Origin: an uncultured bacterium | GTDB taxonomy: Bacteria; Eisenbacteria; RBG-16-71-46; CAIMUX01; WJJG01 | Direction of reading: 5' to 3' | NCBI GenBank assembly: GCA_964417675.1 | Contig: CAYQJL010000282.1 | Location: 68,077 to 132,076, forward strand | DNA length: 64,000 nt | Part shown: one piece after another, positions 6,929 through 63,961 of the stretch | Layout: each line of letters begins with the position of its first letter | How positions within the stretch are numbered: position 1 is the stretch's first letter | Position numbers and translations under genes: made by a program | Notes under the pieces: generated by a model | Database searches by the model: none | Told to the model about the DNA's origin: nothing | The model's input: the letters and a program-made list of their open reading frames with translations, nothing else

Positions 6929-8152
6929 CTACTTCTCGTGGCTGAGGGCCTGGACCGGTGATAGCGCGGCCGCCCGTGACGCGGGATAGAGCCCCGCGCC
7001 CAACCCCACCAGGCCGGCCAGTGCCAGGCTGATGCCCACCGACCAGACCTCCACCCGGGCCGGCAGCGGCGTGAAAGCATTCACGCCCACGGCGATGATC
7101 CCGCCGATCAGAACTCCGATCAGCCCGCCTCCCAGCGCCAGCACCAGCGCCTCGACCAGAAACTGCCCCAGGATATCGCGGCGGCGCGCCCCGACAGCCT
7201 TGCGAATCCCGATCTCGCGTGTACGCTCGGTCACGGCCACCAGCATGATGTTCATCATCACGATCCCGCCGACGACCAAGCTGAGAGCCACGATCGCGAT
7301 CATGGCCAGATAGAAGAGCCCGGTCGTCTGCCGGTAGAACTCATAGTAGGTTTCGGAGGTTTGTATGCCGAAGTCCGGCTCGTCCCACGGTTCGAGACCG
7401 CGGGCGATCTTCATATGAAGCTGCGCCTCCTCCTGCGCCGCCTCAAAGAGCTCGGGGGCCGCCGCCAGCACCGTGATCTCCAGGGAGCCACCGCGGCCGT
7501 AGAGCTGCTGGAAGGTATCGAGCGAGATCAGGGCCACGTTGTCGCGGGATTGCCCCAGGATCTTCCCCTGCGCGGCAAGAACGCCGATCACCCAGAATGT
7601 ATCGCCTGCGATCCGGACCTGCTGGCCGAGCGGCTCGATGGCCCCGAAGAGGGGCTCGGCGATATCAGCGCCGATCACCACCGCCCGGGTCCCCGAGACG
7701 CCCTCCTCCAGCGTGAGATGGCGGCCGGCCGCCAGGCGGTAGGCATCCCCCAGCAAGGGATAGTCGCCACAGATCCCGGTCACCCGCACGTCGCGGGCCT
7801 TCTCCCCCCGCCAATCGAAATCAACCATCCGGCCCACCGAAGGCACGATCGCCGCGGCCGTGGTCATCCGCTCCTCGAGATAGCGGGCCTGCTCCCGGCG
7901 GATATCCTTGCGACGCAGGGCCTGGAACCAGTCCTGCTCGCTCGTGATCATGCCGAACTTCCCGATGCTGAAGGTGTGCGACCCCAGGGAGAGCATCTCC
8001 TGCGCCACATAGCGATTCAGGCCCTGCGTGATCGCAACGACCGAAACCACCGAGACGACGCCGACCACCGTTCCCAGGACGGTCAGGAGAGAGCGCATCC
8101 GGTTGGCCGACAGCGCCACCATGGCGCTCTTGATGGCCTCCCACAACTGCAT
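6929..8152 (-). CDS. ABC transporter permease, MacB/FtsX family (first permease)
   Basis: 407 aa with the FtsX motif (MNIMLVAVTERTREIGIRKAVGARR). It is a paralog of the downstream permease (conserved TREIG motif, only moderate overall similarity), which suggests a heterodimeric LolC/LolE-like pair. Confidence 0.85.
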   Translation of the reverse strand: MQLWEAIKSAMVALSANRMRSLLTVLGTVVGVVSVVSVVAITQGLNRYVAQEMLSLGSHTFSIGKFGMITSEQDWFQALRRKDIRREQARYLEERMTTAAAIVPSVGRMVDFDWRGEKARDVRVTGICGDYPLLGDAYRLAAGRHLTLEEGVSGTRAVVIGADIAEPLFGAIEPLGQQVRIAGDTFWVIGVLAAQGKILGQSRDNVALISLDTFQQLYGRGGSLEITVLAAAPELFEAAQEEAQLHMKIARGLEPWDEPDFGIQTSETYYEFYRQTTGLFYLAMIAIVALSLVVGGIVMMNIMLVAVTERTREIGIRKAVGARRRDILGQFLVEALVLALGGGLIGVLIGGIIAVGVNAFTPLPARVEVWSVGISLALAGLVGLGAGLYPASRAAALSPVQALSHEK

Positions 8153-8170: not shown

Positions 8171-8208
8171 TCCTCGGTGGTCCTCGGTGGTCCTCGGTGG
8201 TCCTTGGC
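8171..8208. repeat. 10-bp tandem repeat, 3.8 copies (TCCTCGGTGG)
   Basis: Direct reading. Sits in the 58-nt spacer between the ABC ATPase stop and the permease start. Confidence 0.8.
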
Positions 8209-8210
8209 CG

Positions 8211-9023
<813 letters not shown>

Positions 9024-16645: not shown

Positions 16646-17953
16646 ATGCCACTGCAAGGAACCATACAGGAGTTCGGGGCACTGGAGACCTTTCAGCTGA
16701 TCGCTCTCCAGCAGAAGACCGGGACGCTCGAAATCTCTACCCGGAGCAGTACGCACAGCTTCATCTTCGAGGGCGGCTTGCTGCAAGCCGCCCACGTGAG
16801 TCCCTTGCATGCCGAGGATCCGCTGCCGCGCTTGCTGGTCGAGGCCGGCTTCTTGAGCGAGGAGGATCTGCGGGCCTGGCTGAGCTTTCCGGGAAACCAG
16901 CCGGTCAACCCCCTCGACCTGTTGCCCAAGCTCTCCTCCATGGACGAAGAGCAACTGCTGGAAGCCTACGATCTCTATGTTCAGACCGTGATGGATGAGG
17001 TGCTGTCCTGGCGTCACGGCCGTTTCCTGTTTCACTCCGGCCGCATCGAGACACCCAGCAAGGTGATCGGTCCGTGGAAGGTCGAAGGCTTCCTCATGGA
17101 AAGCATGCGACGGATTGATGAGCTGACCGATCTGCAGGCCACCGATCTACCCCCAGGCCTGATCCCGCGCCCGCGCCCCCACGCTGCCAGCAACCGCACA
17201 CAGGACCGTTTCGCGCGGGCCGTCCTGCGCCATATCGATGGACGCCTCAGCCTGCAAGAGATCGTAGCCGCCTCGGCCCTCCCGGCCTACGATCTTCACC
17301 GGGCGATTCGTGAACTGCGGGACTCACAACAGATCGAGTTGACCGAATGGATCCCCTCGGGTCCCTGGATGAATTCGATGTGGCGGCGTGGGGCCCGCTG
17401 GAAGTGGATTCCGCTCTCGATCGGAGGCCTGGCCGTCCTGGCCGCGGTCACCGCAGGAACCCAGATGCTCCTCGAGACATGCGCCCCTTCCTGGCATCAG
17501 AACAGCACGTTTAGCTTCCTGTCACCGGTCGCCCGCGCCGCCCGCTCCGACTACTCGACCGCACAGCTCATGGAGGCTTTCCGTGTTCGCCGCGGTCACT
17601 ATCCGCGCTCCCACGCCGAGCTGGTCGAGGATGGCCTGATCTCTCGGCGGGCGGCCCGGAAACTGGCTCTGGACGGCAGCCGCTGGACCCTGGATGCCGG
17701 GGGCCAGACCTACGCCTGGGGCGTGTCGGCCACGACCCCCGACAGCGAAGCCGGCGGCCTTCCGGATGACAGCCCGCGCAGCCGTCCGGATGACGGCCCG
17801 CGCGGCCTCTCCGGGGGACGGCCTGGGGAGCCTCTCCGGGAGACGGACGGACGCACGGACAGCGGTCCGCTCAGCCAGTCGGGTAGCGTTGCGGATCGAG
17901 TACCACACACCGCGGAGCCGGACGGCGCAGCCGCCGACCCACCCAACGACTAG
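16646..17953 (+). CDS. DUF4388 (PatA-like N-terminal domain) protein with one TM helix; function unknown
   Basis: N-terminus GTIQEFGALETFQLIALQQKTGTLEI matches the DUF4388 signature. Mid-protein TM helix; the C-terminus is low-complexity and contains a 21-bp in-frame duplication (PDDSPRSRPDDGPRG). Confidence 0.6.
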   Translation: MPLQGTIQEFGALETFQLIALQQKTGTLEISTRSSTHSFIFEGGLLQAAHVSPLHAEDPLPRLLVEAGFLSEEDLRAWLSFPGNQPVNPLDLLPKLSSMDEEQLLEAYDLYVQTVMDEVLSWRHGRFLFHSGRIETPSKVIGPWKVEGFLMESMRRIDELTDLQATDLPPGLIPRPRPHAASNRTQDRFARAVLRHIDGRLSLQEIVAASALPAYDLHRAIRELRDSQQIELTEWIPSGPWMNSMWRRGARWKWIPLSIGGLAVLAAVTAGTQMLLETCAPSWHQNSTFSFLSPVARAARSDYSTAQLMEAFRVRRGHYPRSHAELVEDGLISRRAARKLALDGSRWTLDAGGQTYAWGVSATTPDSEAGGLPDDSPRSRPDDGPRGLSGGRPGEPLRETDGRTDSGPLSQSGSVADRVPHTAEPDGAAADPPND

Positions 17954-21512: not shown

Positions 21513-24500
21513 CTAGAAGTCGTAGCCGATCGACAGCTCACCCTTGGCCTTGCCCGCCCAGCGCGACAGCTCGCTGCGCCGCACCAGATCCCAACGCAGG
21601 ACGAAGATGCCGAGATTGACGGACGCGCGCAAGCCCACGGAAGCCCTCAGATCCTCGAGCAGTAGATCCCCACTGCCCTCGTCCGTCCGGAATGCGCGGA
21701 ACTGCTCGGGCTCATCCCAGGCCGCTCCCACGTCACAGAAGAGCGCCCCACGCACGCCACCGATCAACAGCGGCAGCGGCCAGGCCATGTAGAATGCTTC
21801 GATGAAGGGGAATCGAAACTCCAGATTCACGAACGCGATCTTGGCCCCGTAGAGCGGATGATCCGCGAATCCCCGCAGCGTGTAGGGCCCTCCGAAGATC
21901 AGCTTGCGATCCTCCTCGCCCCACTCGCCCGCAAACACGCCCCGCAGGGCCAAGGCGTAGTAACGATGAATGTTATGGTAGCGGCGGTAGTCCAGGGAGA
22001 ACCCGTATGAGGCCCGCTGCCCGATGGTCGCGTAGGCCGACGCACGTGAGCGGCGCCCGGCCAGTGGTCCGGTCGGCCCCCAGAGAGCGGAGTCATACAC
22101 CCAGGCCATCTCCGGGCGCAGATACCACGCATCGCTCTTGCGCTCGGTCCACCTGCAGTTCCAGGGATCGTTCGCACCCTCGTCGGCACAGGTGTAGAGG
22201 TAGCGTTTCTCCTGAACGATGTCGAGGCCGGCCTCGAACCGGCGGAACCGCGAGACCGAATGCAACCACACCGCCCGCATGCCCCGCAGAAGGCGCTGCT
22301 CGAAATCCTCCAGATAGCCCGGGACACCGCTGTACCCGTACCCCGTCCAGTACTGGTACAGACCGATGCCGAAGGAGGGCCGCGACCCCAGATCGCTGTA
22401 GGCAAGCAGGTAGTTGCCCTCTTCCAGGGAGCCGGCCACATCGAGGGCCAGCTGGAGGTTCTTCTCGCCCAGGATGTCGGAGAAGACGAGCATAGATTGG
22501 GCCAACACGCCGAAGCCCGACGCGTACAGGCCCCCGGCCTGGGCATAATCAATGGACAGGCGTGGTCTGTATGGCCGGTCTTCCACCTCGAGTGAGTCGG
22601 TCAGCTCGAACGTCTCCTCGTACAACGATCCAAGATCCACGTTCTTCGACGCGGGCGGATCAAACCGAACCGGCCGCGCCGGGGGTTCGGGCGGCACCGC
22701 CAGCGCGGCCGCCTCACCCTCCACCCCGATCTGGCCCGCGGACCCCTCGGCGGGATCCTCGACGGGACCCCGCGCGCAAGCTTCAGCAGAAGCCTCGGCG
22801 GGCCCCTCGGCGAAGGCCTCCCCAGCAGCCTGGTCGTCCCGCGATGCCCAGACCGTGGCCTGATCGAGGGCGCCTAACGGATCCCGCATCGCGTAGAGAT
22901 TCAATCCCCCGTCTTCGTACACGCTGAAGACGACCCGGTGGCCGTTGTCCGACAGGCTGGCCGCGGTGCCGGTCTCCGTGATGCCGGAGACCCCGGTCAT
23001 CAGGTCAGTGAGCTGGTAGTCCTGGTCGGTCTGCAGGTCGCGCACGAAAAGGTTGGCGGTGCCGGTGCGGTCCGAGACGAACAGGAGATGACGCCCGTCG
23101 GGAAACCACTGCGGGCTGACCTGCTTGCCGCTTTGATTCGGCAGCAGGTCCATGCGGCCGCTGCTCACGTCCAGCGTGGCAAGACGCCAGGGCGAGAAGG
23201 ACTCGTCTTCCCGCGCGCTCACGTAGCCCCGGTCGGTGACGAACACCAGGGTCGTGCCGTCCGGCGACCAGGCCGGCTGATCCGCCGACCAGCGGTCCTG
23301 CGTCAGCGCCGACACCCTGCCGCTCAAACGTTCGACCACATAGAGGTTCGAGCGCGCCTCGCGCAGGCCGACGAAGGCGATCCGGCGGCCGTCCGGTGAG
23401 AAACAGGGCGAGACCAACTCATCCACATCCGGCCGGTAACGTTCCACCACCTCCCGGGTGCGGACATTGACAACGATCAAGTGCTCGCGGCCACCGCTGC
23501 GCGTCACGAGAACGATGTGATCGCCGTCCGGCGCCCAATCGATCGCCGAGCGGAAGAAGCGAAAGGTCTCGAACTCCTCCTTCCGTTGGCCGCGCAGCAG
23601 GCGCCGTTCGTGGCTGCCATCCAGGGCCGAGGCCAGGTAGACGTCCGTGTAGAGAGACTCATCCGAGATGTAGACCATCTCGCCGCCACCGGGCGAAACC
23701 GCCGGGCTGATGTAGAAGGCGGCATGGCGTTCGGCGTGATTCGTGAGCCGACGTCCATAGGCGGAGGCCTTCTTGCGCCCCAGCAACTCCGGCAGGTAGC
23801 GATGTCTCAGCGTGTCGGCCCAATCCTCCGATAGCTTCGCAATCGTCAGTCCGATCGACTCCGACGTTCCACGCTCGAGGTTGTTGCGGCGGGCCAGCGA
23901 GCGAAACCACGCACCCAGCATCTCATCCCCGAACTGCTCCCCGATGTGCGCGACCAGCGACTGCCCGAACCGATACACGCGGATGTCGCCAACCCGCGCG
24001 AGCTGCTCCACACTGAGCAGGCCGCCGCTCATCAGCGCATCCCGCATCCACATCCGCGTATGATGGTTCATACCCGGTGTGCTGAGGTACTCGGCCATTC
24101 CCTCCATGACCCACAGCGGGGGCGCCCAGGCAATGGGATCCAACGACCGTCCGAAGCCGGAGGTGCTGAGGATGTCGATCTGAAACGCATGCACCAGCTC
24201 GTGGGTGATGACGTGATCGAGGTCCGCGTGGGATCCGGTGAATGGCACGACCACTCTGCGCTTGAGCAACTCGGTCACTCCGCTGGTGCCTTCACCGATC
24301 AACCCGCGGATGGCCCGGGTCTCACGGAATTCGGTCTGGGAGGCATAGAACAGGAAGGGAATCGGCTCGGCGATCTCGTGATCGAGAATCCGGCTCAGGC
24401 GCTCATAGGCGCGCTCTGCCAAGAATAGTGCTTCGAGGGCGGTCTCGCGCTCTTCCAGATAGTAGTGGAAGTCGAAGTTCGGACTGTGCAGGACGCGCCA

Positions 24501-24650
24501 ATCACGCTGGTGGCGGTCCACCTTGTTCTGACCAAACGCCTGTGCCTCCCCATCGGTCACGTTCATCAGCAGGGTGAGCGCCGCCAGCAGCAGTAGACGC
24601 AGACCATTGGCGCTTCCTGTCCGACCCATTCCCATTGGCCGCCTCCTCAT
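21513..24650 (-). CDS. Large secreted/outer-membrane protein: HExxH metalloprotease-like domain + TolB-like PD40 beta-propeller + C-terminal Omp85/surface-antigen-like beta-barrel
   Basis: Signal peptide from ATG 24650 (MRRRPMGMGRTGSANGLRLLLLAALTLL). HELVH zinc motif, PD40-type repeats (SPDGRRIAFV, SPDGTTLVFVTDR, FPDGRHLLFVSDRTG), and a C-terminus ending ...GELSIGYDF, typical of an OM beta-barrel terminal aromatic. The ORF is also open in-frame upstream through the 12-bp repeats to 25076. Confidence 0.75.
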   Translation of the reverse strand: MRRRPMGMGRTGSANGLRLLLLAALTLLMNVTDGEAQAFGQNKVDRHQRDWRVLHSPNFDFHYYLEERETALEALFLAERAYERLSRILDHEIAEPIPFLFYASQTEFRETRAIRGLIGEGTSGVTELLKRRVVVPFTGSHADLDHVITHELVHAFQIDILSTSGFGRSLDPIAWAPPLWVMEGMAEYLSTPGMNHHTRMWMRDALMSGGLLSVEQLARVGDIRVYRFGQSLVAHIGEQFGDEMLGAWFRSLARRNNLERGTSESIGLTIAKLSEDWADTLRHRYLPELLGRKKASAYGRRLTNHAERHAAFYISPAVSPGGGEMVYISDESLYTDVYLASALDGSHERRLLRGQRKEEFETFRFFRSAIDWAPDGDHIVLVTRSGGREHLIVVNVRTREVVERYRPDVDELVSPCFSPDGRRIAFVGLREARSNLYVVERLSGRVSALTQDRWSADQPAWSPDGTTLVFVTDRGYVSAREDESFSPWRLATLDVSSGRMDLLPNQSGKQVSPQWFPDGRHLLFVSDRTGTANLFVRDLQTDQDYQLTDLMTGVSGITETGTAASLSDNGHRVVFSVYEDGGLNLYAMRDPLGALDQATVWASRDDQAAGEAFAEGPAEASAEACARGPVEDPAEGSAGQIGVEGEAAALAVPPEPPARPVRFDPPASKNVDLGSLYEETFELTDSLEVEDRPYRPRLSIDYAQAGGLYASGFGVLAQSMLVFSDILGEKNLQLALDVAGSLEEGNYLLAYSDLGSRPSFGIGLYQYWTGYGYSGVPGYLEDFEQRLLRGMRAVWLHSVSRFRRFEAGLDIVQEKRYLYTCADEGANDPWNCRWTERKSDAWYLRPEMAWVYDSALWGPTGPLAGRRSRASAYATIGQRASYGFSLDYRRYHNIHRYYALALRGVFAGEWGEEDRKLIFGGPYTLRGFADHPLYGAKIAFVNLEFRFPFIEAFYMAWPLPLLIGGVRGALFCDVGAAWDEPEQFRAFRTDEGSGDLLLEDLRASVGLRASVNLGIFVLRWDLVRRSELSRWAGKAKGELSIGYDF

Positions 24651-24779
24651 GGCCTCATGCTCCAGGGCGCCCACCAGCGTCCCACCCCTGGCTGACGGGG
24701 GGACAATCCTCAGAAACCGCCGGAAAACAAACCAGTTCCGGATTGCACCGTTCCGGCTCAGGAATGAGGTTTCCAACTC

Positions 24780-24960
24780 CAGGCATGTCTTCAGGCACAT
24801 CTCCAGGCACCTGGCTAGGCACGTCTCCAGGCACACGTCTCCAGGCACGCGTCTGGGCACCTCTCCAGGCACGTCTCCAGGCACGTGTCTGGGCACCTCT
24901 CCAGACATGTGTCTAGGTGCGTGTCCAGGCACGTCTCCAGGCACGTGAGGCACGTGTGTG
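24780..24960. repeat. Imperfect 12-bp tandem repeat array (consensus AGGCACGTCTCC, about 14 units)
   Basis: Direct reading of the sequence. Intergenic, between the GGDEF gene stop (25115) and the protease gene start (24650). The array preserves reading frame (VPGD/VPRH tetrapeptide repeats in the six-frame ORF). Confidence 0.85.
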
Positions 24961-25114
24961 CGCATGTGTCTTTGCAGACTCGCAGGGTGACCCGAGGAGG
25001 TCAAGGGCGGGCATCGCCGAGCACAACAAGGCCGAGCAACCCCCCATCCATGCGGGCGGCTGTGACCGGAGCGCAACCGAAGGCCGGTGGGGTATGCACG
25101 GACGGGACGCGGAT

Positions 25115-30989: not shown

Positions 30990-31886
30990 TCATGCCCGGC
31001 GCTCGGCCGCGGCGACGGCGTTGGCCAGGAGGGAGGCCACCGTCATGGGACCCACTCCACCCGGCACCGGCGTGATGGCGGCGACCTTGGCGGCGACCGC
31101 ATCGAAATCCACGTCTCCACACAGGCGGACCTTGTCCGGGATGTCGGGGTGGGGTTCGCGGTGAATGCCGACATCGATGACCGTAGCCCCCGCGGCGACC
31201 CAATCGGCCCTCACCATGCGCTTGACCCCTGCCGCCACGATCAGGATCTGTGCGCGCCGCGTGATCCCGGGCAGATCTCGCGTCCGGGTATGGCAGATCG
31301 TCACGGTGGCATCGCCACCCGGCCTCTTGCTGGAGAGTAGATTGGCCAGCGGTCGGCCCACGATGCGGCTACGCCCGAGGATGACGACCTCCCGACCCTC
31401 GGGCTCGATTCCGTAGAACTCCATGATTTTCAGGATCCCGAGCGGGGTAGCCGGCACGAATCGCGGGGTCCCTAAGGCAAGCAGGCCCACATTGTGGGGA
31501 TGGAAGCCATCCACGTCCTTCTCCGGCGGGATCGCCTCCAAGACGCGGTTCTCATCCAGGTGACCGGGGAGCGGGAGTTGAACCAGCAGCCCGTCGATCT
31601 CGCGGCGACCGGCAGTTTCGCGGATGCGCTCCAGCACATCCGCCTCCGAGGCCGTCTCGGGTAGGTGCAAGACCTCAGAGGCGATCCCGAGCTTGTGGCA
31701 GGCCTTCTGCTTCGCGCCGACATACACCGCCGAAGCAGGGTCCTCCCCGACCCGGATCAGCGCCAACCCGGGAACGACACCACGGCCGGCCAGCAGTTCG
31801 ATCCGTTCGCGCAGTTGTGCCTTGAGGCGATCGGCCACCGGCTTCCCACGCAAGATCTCCGCCACGGCACCTCCTCGGCTTGTCAT
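30990..31886 (-). CDS. folD: Bifunctional methylenetetrahydrofolate dehydrogenase / methenyltetrahydrofolate cyclohydrolase
   Basis: 298 aa with full-length FolD motifs (VGEDPASAVYVGAKQKAC, GRSRIVGRPLANLL, PVPGGVGPMTVASL). ATG at 31886. Confidence 0.9.
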   Translation of the reverse strand: MTSRGGAVAEILRGKPVADRLKAQLRERIELLAGRGVVPGLALIRVGEDPASAVYVGAKQKACHKLGIASEVLHLPETASEADVLERIRETAGRREIDGLLVQLPLPGHLDENRVLEAIPPEKDVDGFHPHNVGLLALGTPRFVPATPLGILKIMEFYGIEPEGREVVILGRSRIVGRPLANLLSSKRPGGDATVTICHTRTRDLPGITRRAQILIVAAGVKRMVRADWVAAGATVIDVGIHREPHPDIPDKVRLCGDVDFDAVAAKVAAITPVPGGVGPMTVASLLANAVAAAERRA

Positions 31887-31986
31887 GGCTCTCTGCGGCC
31901 GGTCATCGTCCGTTGCGGCCGGTCATCGCCCGTTGCGGCCGGTCATCGCCCGTTGCGGCCGGTCATCACCCGCTGCGGGCGGTCAT
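31883..31986 (-). promoter_or_regulatory. Chain of five overlapping 7-codon mini-ORFs generated by a 20-bp tandem repeat, ending in an ATGA overlap with the folD start codon
   Basis: On the minus strand the 20-bp unit GGCCGCAACGGGCGATGACC repeats five times. Every copy carries ATG ACC ... CGA TGA, so each 7-codon ORF (MTGRNGR; variants MTARSG and MTGRREP) stops with a TGA that overlaps the next ATG. The last TGA overlaps the folD ATG (CCATGACA). Confidence 0.7.
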
Positions 31987-32016
31987 CGCCCTTTGCGGCT
32001 CGACGCGGCCAGGCAG

Positions 32017-33588
32017 CTAACGGGCGTAGTCAACGGCCCGCGTCTCGCGGATGACCACAACCTTGATCTGGCCAGGATACTGCAGATCCTTCTCGATCTT
32101 CTTGGCGATATCGGTGGCCAATTGCTCCGCCCCGGCATCATCGACATCCTTGTGCTGAACCGCAATGCGGATCTCACGGCCCGCTTGGATCGCGAAGCAC
32201 TTGTCGACCCCCTTGAAGGACTCGGCCAGAGATTCAAGCGTATGGAGACGTTTGATGTACGACTCCAGCGTCTCACGGCGCGCACCGGGACGGGCCCCGG
32301 AAATCCCGTCGGCGGCCTGCACCAGCACCGCGTAGACGCTGGTCGTCTCGACTTCCCCGTGGTGGGCGCCCACCGATTGGATCACCTCTTCGCGCTCATT
32401 GCACCGGCGGACGAGATCCGCGCCAATCCCGGCGTGCGGTCCTTCCACCTCGTGATCCACGGCCTTGCCAATGTCATGCAGCAAGCCGCAGCGTTTCGCC
32501 AGTGTGATGTCCAGGCCCAATTCCGCCGCCATCATGCCCGCCAGGTGGGCAACCTCGACCGAGTGTTTCAGCACGACTTGGCCGAAACTGGTCCGATACT
32601 GCAGCGCCCCCAAATGCCGGATCAGCTCCGGGTGCAGCCCATGGGCTCCCAGATCCAGCGCAACCCGTTCGCCCGTCTCCCGGATGTTGCGTTCGATGTC
32701 CCGCTTGACCCGCTCGACGACCTCCTCGATGCGCCCCGGATGAATACGCCCGTCGCTGATCAGCTTCTCCAGCGCCTGCCGGGCAATCTCACGCCGCACT
32801 GGATCGTATCCGGATAGCAAGACAGCTTCCGGCGTGTCATCGATCACCACGTCAATGCCGGTGGCCAGTTCGAAGGCCCGGATGTTGCGGCCTTCGCGAC
32901 CGATGATGCGGCCCTTCATCTCCTCGGACGGCAGCGAGACCACCGTCACCGTGTTCTCGGCCGACTGCTCGGACGCCATCCTCTGGATGGCGATGCCGAT
33001 GATCCTCTGAGCCTCCCTTTCAGCGTCCCGCTCGGCCTCTTCACGGATCCGGCGCGCCTTCATGGCCGCCTCCGCCCGCACCTCTTCCTCCAGGTTCTTG
33101 AACAGCTCTTGCCGGGCCGCCTCCGCGGTGAGCCCCGAGATCTGCTCGAGGCGAACATTCTGCTGCTCGATCGAGCGCTCTAGCTCGGCTTGCCGTGCAT
33201 CCGCGCTCTCCCGCTGCTGTTCGAGCCGTTTCGCAAGCGCCTTGAGCTCCTTCTCTTGAACCCGATTCTGCTCCGCCTGGCGGGTGACGACGGTCTCCCG
33301 GTCCAGTAGCGCCTGATCCCGCTTCTCAAGCTCCTGGCGCGCTTTCCACATCTCCTCGTCGAACTTGGCCTTTGCCCGGAACCACTCCTCGCGCGCCTCG
33401 ACCTCCGTGGTCTTCTTCAGGAGCGTGGCTTCCTTCTGTGCCTCTGTCAGGATCTTCTTCGCGCGGCTGTCCGCATCCTCCAGTCTGCTCAGTCCGATGC
33501 GGCGGTGTACCTGAAACCCACCAAAGAAGCCCAGCGCCCCCATGACCAGGGCGATCAGGATTGTCCCCAACTGACCCAACGACCCCAT
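32017..33588 (-). CDS. rny: Ribonuclease Y
   Basis: N-terminal TM helix, long coiled-coil, KH domain ([11 protein letters not shown]) and HD domain (HDIGKA). Confidence 0.9.
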
Positions 33589-33894: not shown

Positions 33895-34212
33895 TCAGTC
33901 AAGCAGGCTGGAGGGAGCCACCTCCTCCCGGACCGATGCATCCAGGGTAGACCCCAACTCCGCCACCCTCTGCTGCAACCATGTAGCCAGGTCGGTGGCA
34001 CGCGCCCGCTCTCGAAGAAGCTCGTCAGCGAGGTTCAGCGCCGTCAGCACGGCGACCCTCTTTCCATCAATTGTAGCACTGCTCTCCCTAACCTCGCTCA
34101 TCTTATCCGCAACATACGACGCCAATTCCGGTATCGAGGCGCCGGTCGGCTCTCCGGCCACCCGGTACTCGTCCCCCAGAATCGTGACCTTTGTGTATGT
34201 GGCGTCGCTCAT
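33895..34212 (-). CDS. zapA: Cell division protein ZapA
   Basis: 105 aa; N-terminal VTILGDEYRV plus a C-terminal coiled-coil is typical of ZapA. Confidence 0.7.
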   Translation of the reverse strand: MSDATYTKVTILGDEYRVAGEPTGASIPELASYVADKMSEVRESSATIDGKRVAVLTALNLADELLRERARATDLATWLQQRVAELGSTLDASVREEVAPSSLLD

Positions 34213-36338: not shown

Positions 36339-36493
36339 GAACCCTTCCCCCTATGTCGGATGAAGGAACGAGTATCTTAGGGGAACATGCCTGAACCTGT
36401 CAACTACATGCTTTCGAAGCGCCTGCCCGGTCCCGTCCGGCCCGGATCCCGTCGGGCCCGGGATCGAATCCCATCCGCCCGTCGAGCCTGGGA

Positions 36494-41828: not shown

Positions 41829-41912
41829 CACCCCACAATCCGGTTGCCGCACGCGCTTCGGTTGCCGCGCGCGCTTCGGTTGCCGCACGCGCTTCGGTTG
41901 CCGCGCGGGTTG
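41829..41912. repeat. 18-bp tandem repeat, about 4 copies (CGCTTCGGTTGCCGCRCG)
   Basis: Direct reading. Lies in the divergent region between the PAP2-M23 gene and yfiH. In frame it would encode (RQPKRA)n if the upstream ATG at 41888 is used. Confidence 0.85.
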
Positions 41913-57476: not shown

Positions 57477-57570
57477 AACGGGCAGCCGGCAAGGATGCCT
57501 CGACTCCCGCCCACGGGCAGCCGGCAAGGATGCCTCGACTCCCGCACACGGGCAGCCGGCAAGGATGGCT
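57477..57570. repeat. 36-bp tandem repeat, 2.6 copies (ACGGGCAGCCGGCAAGGATGCCTCGACTCCCGCMC), a candidate enhancer-like array
   Basis: Direct reading. It begins 5 nt after the stop of the upstream gene and lies about 180-280 bp upstream of the sigma-54 -24 element. Each unit contains the GGCA-N4-TGCC and GCCGGC dyads. Confidence 0.8.
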
Positions 57571-63721: not shown

Positions 63722-63840
63722 CTCTCGAACAGACCGCTATACGACAGGCCCGAGGCGCTATACGACAGGCCCGAGGCGCTATGCGACAGGCCCGAGCCGC
63801 TATGCGACAGGCCCGAGCCGCTATACGACAGGCCCGAGGA
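63722..63840. repeat. 21-bp tandem repeat, 5 copies (CTATRCGACAGGCCCGAGSCG)
   Basis: Direct reading. Lies between tRNA-Leu and the HDAC gene start. On the minus strand every unit carries an in-frame TAG. An ATG at 63844 opens an 8-codon uORF (MLLGPVV). Confidence 0.85.
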
Positions 63841-63878
63841 GCATGACCTCTCCCCGGGCCTGTACGAGCGATAACCTG

Positions 63879-63961
63879 TGCCGGGGACGGGACTCGAACC
63901 CGTACGGGTTGCCCCACACGCCCCTCAAACGTGCGTGTCTACCAAATTCCACCACCCCGGC
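63879..63961 (-). tRNA. tRNA-Leu (anticodon GAG), class II with long variable arm
   Basis: Hand-folded: acceptor GCCGGGG/CCCCGGC, 3-bp D-stem, anticodon stem CACGT/GCGTG, loop TTGAGGG, variable arm about 15 nt, T-arm ACGGG-TTCGAGT-CCCGT. 83 nt. Confidence 0.85.

Follow-up and report, generated by a model that had tools for sequence, protein, structure and literature searches.

In the phase-variable contingency loci of pathogens, expression is switched by a shift of the reading frame or by a change in promoter spacing. Tandem repeats that lie in operon spacers and carry coupled small ORFs are known from mycobacteria as MIRUs (Supply et al. 1997, Mol Microbiol 26:991, as cited in PMC3635867 and PMC2734929). 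Their units measure 40-100 bp (PMC2734929), occupy about 41 loci in Mycobacterium tuberculosis and are apparently mobile. It has been reported that the ORF of these intercistronic repeats is coupled to the downstream gene with a spacing of -4 nt (ATGA), which is thought to permit insertion with minimal effect on expression (PMC12548453). An earlier note on the DNA analysed here had stated that no leader of this kind was described, and the MIRUs contradict that statement. Another related element is VNTR3239 (ETR-F) in the rnc-fpg spacer of M. tuberculosis, whose length was correlated experimentally with the level of fpg mRNA; it is absent from other mycobacteria, in which the rnc-fpg spacers measure 6-54 bp (PMC2734929).

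The locus compared with these systems lies in a window of 64 kb, by which we mean the whole stretch of DNA that was analysed (64,000 nucleotides). On the - strand, the genes for RNase Y, FolD, XseA, XseB, NAD kinase and a RecN-like protein follow each other in this order, with an intercistronic spacer of 151 nt (31866-32016) between the rny stop and the folD GTG. The earlier note had named the flanking genes as rny and folD, and Pfam matches to both supported this. The rny gene (32017-33588, - strand) encodes an RNase Y of 523 aa with RNase_Y_N, KH and HD domains and ends in a TAG stop at 32019-32017. The folD gene (30990-31865, - strand; 291 aa from the GTG at 31865) matches PF00763 and PF02882 (THF_DHG_CYH and THF_DHG_CYH_C). 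The order L20-zapB-zapA-rny-folD-xseA-xseB-nadK-recN is kept in relatives outside the species. A 6S RNA gene (Rfam RF00013; 33643-33822, - strand) was also found between zapA (33895-34212) and rny, with 50.3 bits against a gathering score of 46.4. In E. coli, too, zapA and ssrS are linked, and a folate-related gene comes after them; here rny-folD comes next.

Within the spacer, TRF detected a tandem repeat at 31894-31999 with a period of 20, 5.3 copies, 90% matches and a score of 177, and a degenerate sixth unit (14/20 matches) stretches the array to 31880. Read in steps of 20 nt, the array (31880-31999, - strand) consists of six units with the consensus GCCGCAACGGGCGATGACCG, which appear in - strand order as GCCGCAAAGGGCGATGACCG, CCCGCAGCGGGTGATGACCG, two copies of GCCGCAACGGGCGATGACCG, GCCGCAACGGACGATGACCG and the degenerate GCCGCAGAGAGCCATGACAA. 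The units in the middle of the array do not differ from one another, and degeneracy is confined to its edges, a pattern that fits expansion by slippage. The head-to-tail arrangement of units of at least 10 bp, repeated beyond chance, is that of a VNTR or minisatellite. The repeat reported in the earlier note, five copies of a 20-bp unit between rny and folD, is therefore real, but its count is refined to 5.3 copies plus the degenerate sixth unit. Neither the 20-mer nor its 14-nt core matched elsewhere in the 64-kb window, where shuffles gave 0 to 0.16 matches, and the core GATGACCGGCCGCA was found at the rny-folD locus only when the window and the same-species loci were searched. A dispersed repeat family was rejected, since the unit occurs at this one locus in the window and the fetched loci.

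Although the closest RNase Y among 185,579 species representatives shares only 55% identity and there is no close reference genome, the same species was recovered in public assemblies by exact-protein look-ups. The JGI contig MLSed_10000029 (L001) carries 5 units in a spacer of 131 nt and is otherwise identical to the window over 11.5 kb save one SNP. A Logan contig from another run (L003) differs from the window within the array, with G instead of A at 31909. A sister strain, assembled in ENA (L094) and in Logan (L095), has 2 units, GCCGCAACGGGTGATGACCG and GCCGCAAAGAGCCATGACAA, in a spacer of 71 nt; it shares 98.2-98.6% nucleotide identity with the window, and its FolD is 99% identical. The alleles within the species thus form a series of 2, 5 and 6 units between conserved flanks (98.2-100% identical), as in a VNTR. 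Since short-read assemblies can miscount units, the difference between 5 and 6 rests on assemblies; the difference between 2 and 5/6 and the G/A at 31909 are more robust. Two scans of a metagenome-contig collection, one with the repeat pattern and one with the flank pattern, gave no match, and the collection apparently does not hold this species, because the pattern-bearing JGI contig was not returned either.

The earlier note had proposed to look for the same array upstream of folD in related genomes. No relative outside the species carries it, with the gene order unchanged: the spacers of 119 nt in L084 (FolD identity 76%), 74 nt in L096 (74%) and 43 nt in L085 and L088 (71%) contain no repeat and no chained ATG/TGA units, and the spacer of L096 contains no ATG at all. 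Such lack of conservation in more distant relatives is again a property of a VNTR. Within the species, on the other hand, the ATG/TGA phasing about which the earlier note had asked is kept in all alleles (2, 5 and 6 units), and the in-frame ATG before folD is retained in each of them.

Sequence comparison places the start of folD at GTG 31865, not at ATG 31886. The GTG is preceded by the Shine-Dalgarno (SD) sequence GAGGAGG (31868-31874, - strand), with a predicted anti-SD pairing of -12.9 kcal/mol, the strongest among the 29 called gene starts of this organism (median -9.1). These energies were calculated for pairing to the canonical anti-SD, and all 1644 ATG trinucleotides of the window served as background (median -3.1). 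The gene call for folD on the public contig is 291 aa long, which means that it starts at the GTG; this protein, recorded on an NCBI/Logan contig, is the window's own FolD and is also member P0121 of the FolD cluster. The start context GGAGGTGCCGTG is conserved in L084 and L096. The relatives with 76% and 74% FolD identity have the context AGGAGGTGCCGTGGCC, those with 71% have AAGGAGGGAGCCTACGGTG, and in all of them FolD begins with MA(D/E)LLRG at a GTG. Of 60 homologues, 37 have a conserved FolD motif at residue 39 and 55 have it at residues 39-41; in the protein studied here it falls at residue 39 with the GTG start and at residue 46 with ATG 31886. The ATG that the earlier note had taken as the real folD start, overlapped by the last TGA of the array, is that of the degenerate last repeat unit (31884-31886, - strand). 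It lies in frame with folD 21 nt upstream of the GTG, has an SD energy of only -2.9 kcal/mol and would add MTSRGGA to the protein.

Five chained mini-ORFs can be read through the array (31883-31986, - strand), with ATGs at 31986, 31966, 31946, 31926 and 31906. Their peptides are MTARSG (6 codons), MTGRNGR three times and MTGRREP, so that the ORFs have 6-7 codons. The earlier note had given every ATG a 7-codon MTGRNGR, which is correct for three of the five but not for MTARSG and MTGRREP. The stop/start phasing that it described also exists, with an overlap of 4 nt (ATGA) at four junctions; the first junction, however, overlaps by 1 nt only (TGATG). The TGA of the last mini-ORF (31885-31883) overlaps ATG 31886 and ends the chain 18 nt before GTG 31865. 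The ATGs of the mini-ORFs have no SD, their energies of -2.2 to -4.4 kcal/mol being close to the background median of ATGs rather than to the gene median, and the first of them (-4.4 kcal/mol) stands 30 nt past the rny stop. The predicted chain is thus without a plausible loading point, and it has neither the SD nor the tight junction through which an upstream leader ORF is translated. The claim of five consecutive couplings ending on folD is not supported, because the chain misses the conserved GTG with its own strong SD and runs through ATGs that have none.

How far the phasing itself is informative was considered from the structure of the unit. With ATGA in the unit and a unit length of 2 mod 3, every ATG meets the following unit's TGA in its own frame, whatever the copy number. 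The phasing is therefore kept automatically and is not evidence of selection. When 200,000 random 20-mers were drawn from the window and each was repeated in tandem, a stop/start relay resulted in 5.8% with ATG only and in 14% with any start codon. Given this chance and several arrays per 64 kb, one ATGA relay is unremarkable. The six units have 11 substitutions among them, none of which falls in the ATGA or in the C that follows it; uniform mutation gives a chance of about 0.8^11 = 0.09 for this. Since the block CCGCA is equally conserved, this is weak evidence. Other intergenic arrays of the window whose period is not divisible by 3 (10 bp at 8171 and 35 bp at 57478) contain no ATG on the gene strand, so there is no general pattern of ATGA-phased arrays.

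Compared with the MIRUs, the folD array is alike in being made of tandem direct repeats in an operon spacer, oriented with the genes and polymorphic in copy number among strains: rny and folD lie on one strand, their order is conserved and a spacer of 43 nt separates them in relatives. It is also alike in that the stop of a small ORF overlaps the next start by -4 nt (ATGA), and such overlaps suggest translational coupling and a tolerated insertion. In other respects the two differ. The unit is 20 bp long instead of about 40-100 bp, it occurs at one locus in 64 kb (and in the same-species loci) instead of being dispersed at many, it has no sequence similarity to MIRUs, it belongs to a different lineage, and it was apparently generated locally from a 2-copy proto-repeat. 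In addition, the overlaps exist between units and not with the neighbour genes, since the in-frame ATG on which the chain ends precedes the GTG by 21 nt, and the chain does not begin at the rny stop. The folD array is therefore not a MIRU; as a family member it is an ordinary VNTR, which, like MIRUs, may be tolerated in an operon spacer.

VNTR3239 is similar in another respect: each of the two is a variable array that follows a ribonuclease gene and precedes a co-oriented housekeeping gene, and each is missing from related species. The organisation of VNTR3239 is complex and its units are longer, and the correlation of its length with mRNA was measured. Ordinary coupled gene junctions show the same stop/start overlaps of -4 and -1 nt (PMC12548453), but they connect one real gene with another, or a leader ORF with its gene, while the folD array joins SD-less units and its final junction lies off the conserved start. 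As regards slippage that alters the number of units near the 5' end of a gene, the array is comparable to contingency loci. Unlike these, it lies outside the coding sequence, every one of its frames ends in a TGA, and the SD keeps a constant distance from the start codon.

The spacer was also inspected for known RNA elements and for structure. An Rfam scan of 31500-32400, with E values up to 10 accepted, returned only noise matches, so that no THF or ZTP riboswitch is indicated; a known RNA element upstream of folD (THF/ZTP riboswitch or sRNA) was set aside, nothing relevant being found in this permissive scan. A stable RNA structure was likewise rejected, as the spacer folds no better than shuffles (z = -1.07). 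Neither a sigma-70-like promoter nor an intrinsic terminator was predicted by a consensus scan, which covered promoters of the sigma-70 type. A masking of the SD that depends on copy number was tested and discarded as well, because the predicted unpaired probability of GGAGG was 0.60 throughout 1-9 units, while the predicted pairing of the start codon fluctuated over the same range with no trend. The suggestion of the earlier note that copy number could tune folD by slippage is thus borne out as far as the variation of the unit number (6, 5, 2) is concerned, but the predicted accessibility of the SD does not change with it.

In our judgement the array is probably a slippage-driven intercistronic VNTR, in which the mini-ORFs are a by-product and folD would be translated from its own SD and GTG. 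According to this explanation, a minisatellite in the transcribed spacer of the conserved rny-folD-xseA-xseB operon would have arisen when an imperfect two-copy direct repeat, which the sister strain still has, grew to 5-6 units, the likely mechanism being replication slippage or unequal recombination, and whole 20-bp units would still be gained and lost. Translation of folD would begin at the conserved GTG behind GAGGAGG, downstream of the array, as the comparison among relatives indicates. The chain of mini-ORFs with ATGA overlaps would exist because the unit happens to hold ATGA and to be 2 mod 3 in length. Each ATG is closed by the TGA of the next unit, TGA occurring in all three frames, and at most the mini-ORFs may make the insertion harmless by releasing stray ribosomes just before the folD SD. 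A translational relay resembling that of MIRUs would instead hand ribosomes, coming from rny or from the first ATG, along the mini-ORFs by termination and reinitiation at ATGA and deliver them to the folD SD and GTG 18 nt past the last stop, so that the coupling of rny and folD would be kept or tuned and copy number would set its efficiency. The exact phasing in all alleles, the ATGA that is unmutated in every unit, the position of the last stop beside a strong SD, the MIRU precedent with its -4 coupling and the report that a gene can receive its ribosome from a short ORF upstream of it (PMC12548453) are all consistent with such a relay. We nevertheless regard it as unlikely, for ribosomes would have to reach a first ATG that lies 30 nt past the rny stop without an SD, when added spacing of less than 20 nt can already reduce coupling substantially (PMC12548453), the other ATGs lack an SD too, and losses would multiply over five successive reinitiations. 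Furthermore, folD has a very strong SD of its own, three repeat-free relatives use the same SD and GTG, and about 6% of 20-mers would show the phasing by chance. The bolder version, in which a locally born MIRU-like ribosome relay driven by slippage from 2 to 6 units would set the FolD output across the population, appears slightly more doubtful still.

A role of the array at the level of DNA or mRNA, as binding sites of a regulator, an internal promoter, or a spacer for mRNA processing or stability, would link the repeat number to the level of folD transcript. It draws on the correlation of VNTR3239 length with fpg mRNA (PMC2734929), on the promoter activity reported for the MIRU spacer of senX3-regX3 (PMC4213456), and on features of the unit itself, namely a 20-bp period close to two helical turns and a palindrome CGGCCG in each unit. 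Considering the negative predictions for promoter, terminator, RNA structure and Rfam families given above, the restriction of the unit to one place in the window and the fetched loci, the relatives that have the same operon without the array, and the viability of the 2-unit allele, we hold such a role to be improbable, about as much as a relay that sets FolD output. Finally, the array or its copy-number variation might be an assembly artefact, since repeats of this kind are broken or collapsed in de Bruijn assemblies of short reads and three Logan short-read contigs do end inside arrays. This is very hard to reconcile with the presence of the array in independent assemblies of different samples (the window, L001, L002, L003, L094 and L095), with the recovery of the 2-unit allele in two assemblies whose flanks have diverged from the window by about 1.5%, and with the base difference at 31909 that goes together with an extra unit, and we give it hardly any weight.

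As it stands, the finding matters little, as it adds one more strain-variable tandem repeat in an operon spacer. In practice, the array can serve to tell strains of this uncultured lineage apart, it is a caution that breaks and miscounts occur at such arrays when this genome is assembled, and the start of folD has been corrected from ATG to GTG. If the mini-ORFs were translated and affected the output of FolD, the locus would be a second, independent case of the principle known from MIRUs, namely that repeats are tolerated or put to use by virtue of the stop/start coupling that they keep. Tandem repeats with coupled ORFs would then have originated independently outside mycobacteria with a much shorter unit, and the locus would offer a simple natural system for measuring serial termination and reinitiation.

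The folD array is one of many hypervariable arrays, which are a genome-wide habit of this organism. TRF found 13 arrays with scores of at least 50 and 5 with scores of at least 100 in the window. In 80 other bacteria, from which 672 kb were analysed, the corresponding numbers per 64 kb are 4.2 and 0.19; high-scoring arrays are roughly 25 times as dense here as in those loci. Several arrays sit in short spacers of co-directional genes or adjoin tRNAs. In a comparison of about 30 kb with the JGI assembly, four SNPs were found besides the differences that belong to tandem arrays. The latter are in the majority and consist of the 20-bp folD unit, a 9-bp unit (8987-8995) and 12 differences between 17707 and 17795.

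Among the arrays in coding regions, a 9-bp repeat of 4.1 copies (8987-9023, - strand) codes for an N-terminal (VTD)4 in an ABC-transporter ATPase, and is a coding VNTR, since the JGI assembly L093 is shorter by exactly one unit. A 25-bp repeat of 3.7 copies (17707-17846, + strand) lies in the C-terminal part of the gene for a PatA_N-domain protein (16649-17953), and the 12 differences from the JGI contig that cluster there include indels summing to 3 nt. The pattern GGATGAC..GCCCGC is common to the first units of this array (17757, in the coding region) and the folD unit, probably by chance. A 12-bp repeat of 14 copies (24777-24946, - strand; 36-bp super-unit, score 184) is situated close to the 5' end of an ORF of 1187 aa (21513-25076) and presumably encodes a repetitive N-terminal peptide region.

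Of the intergenic arrays, a 10-bp repeat of 3.4 copies (AGGACCACCG; 8171-8204, - strand) occupies a 58-nt spacer just upstream of the start of a MacB-like permease gene (ATG 8152); an SD-like GAGGA is made at each unit junction, and the array is identical in the JGI contig. The others are a 16-bp repeat of 2.4 copies just upstream of tRNA-Val (36425-36461), an 18-bp repeat of 3.6 copies in a divergent intergenic region (41841-41904), a 35-bp repeat of 2.6 copies between two co-directional genes (57478-57567) and a 21-bp repeat of five copies (63735-63839) just downstream of tRNA-Leu (63878-63961). The window joins, from about 18165 onward, two contigs that are separate in the JGI metagenome 3300001533 (MLSed_10000066 and MLSed_10000029), and therefore represents a different and more contiguous assembly of the same population. 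Three SNPs against the JGI contig lie within 13 nt (7376-7388) inside the MacB-like permease gene, in surroundings that are almost identical over 18 kb; this patch could have resulted from local recombination or mis-assembly.
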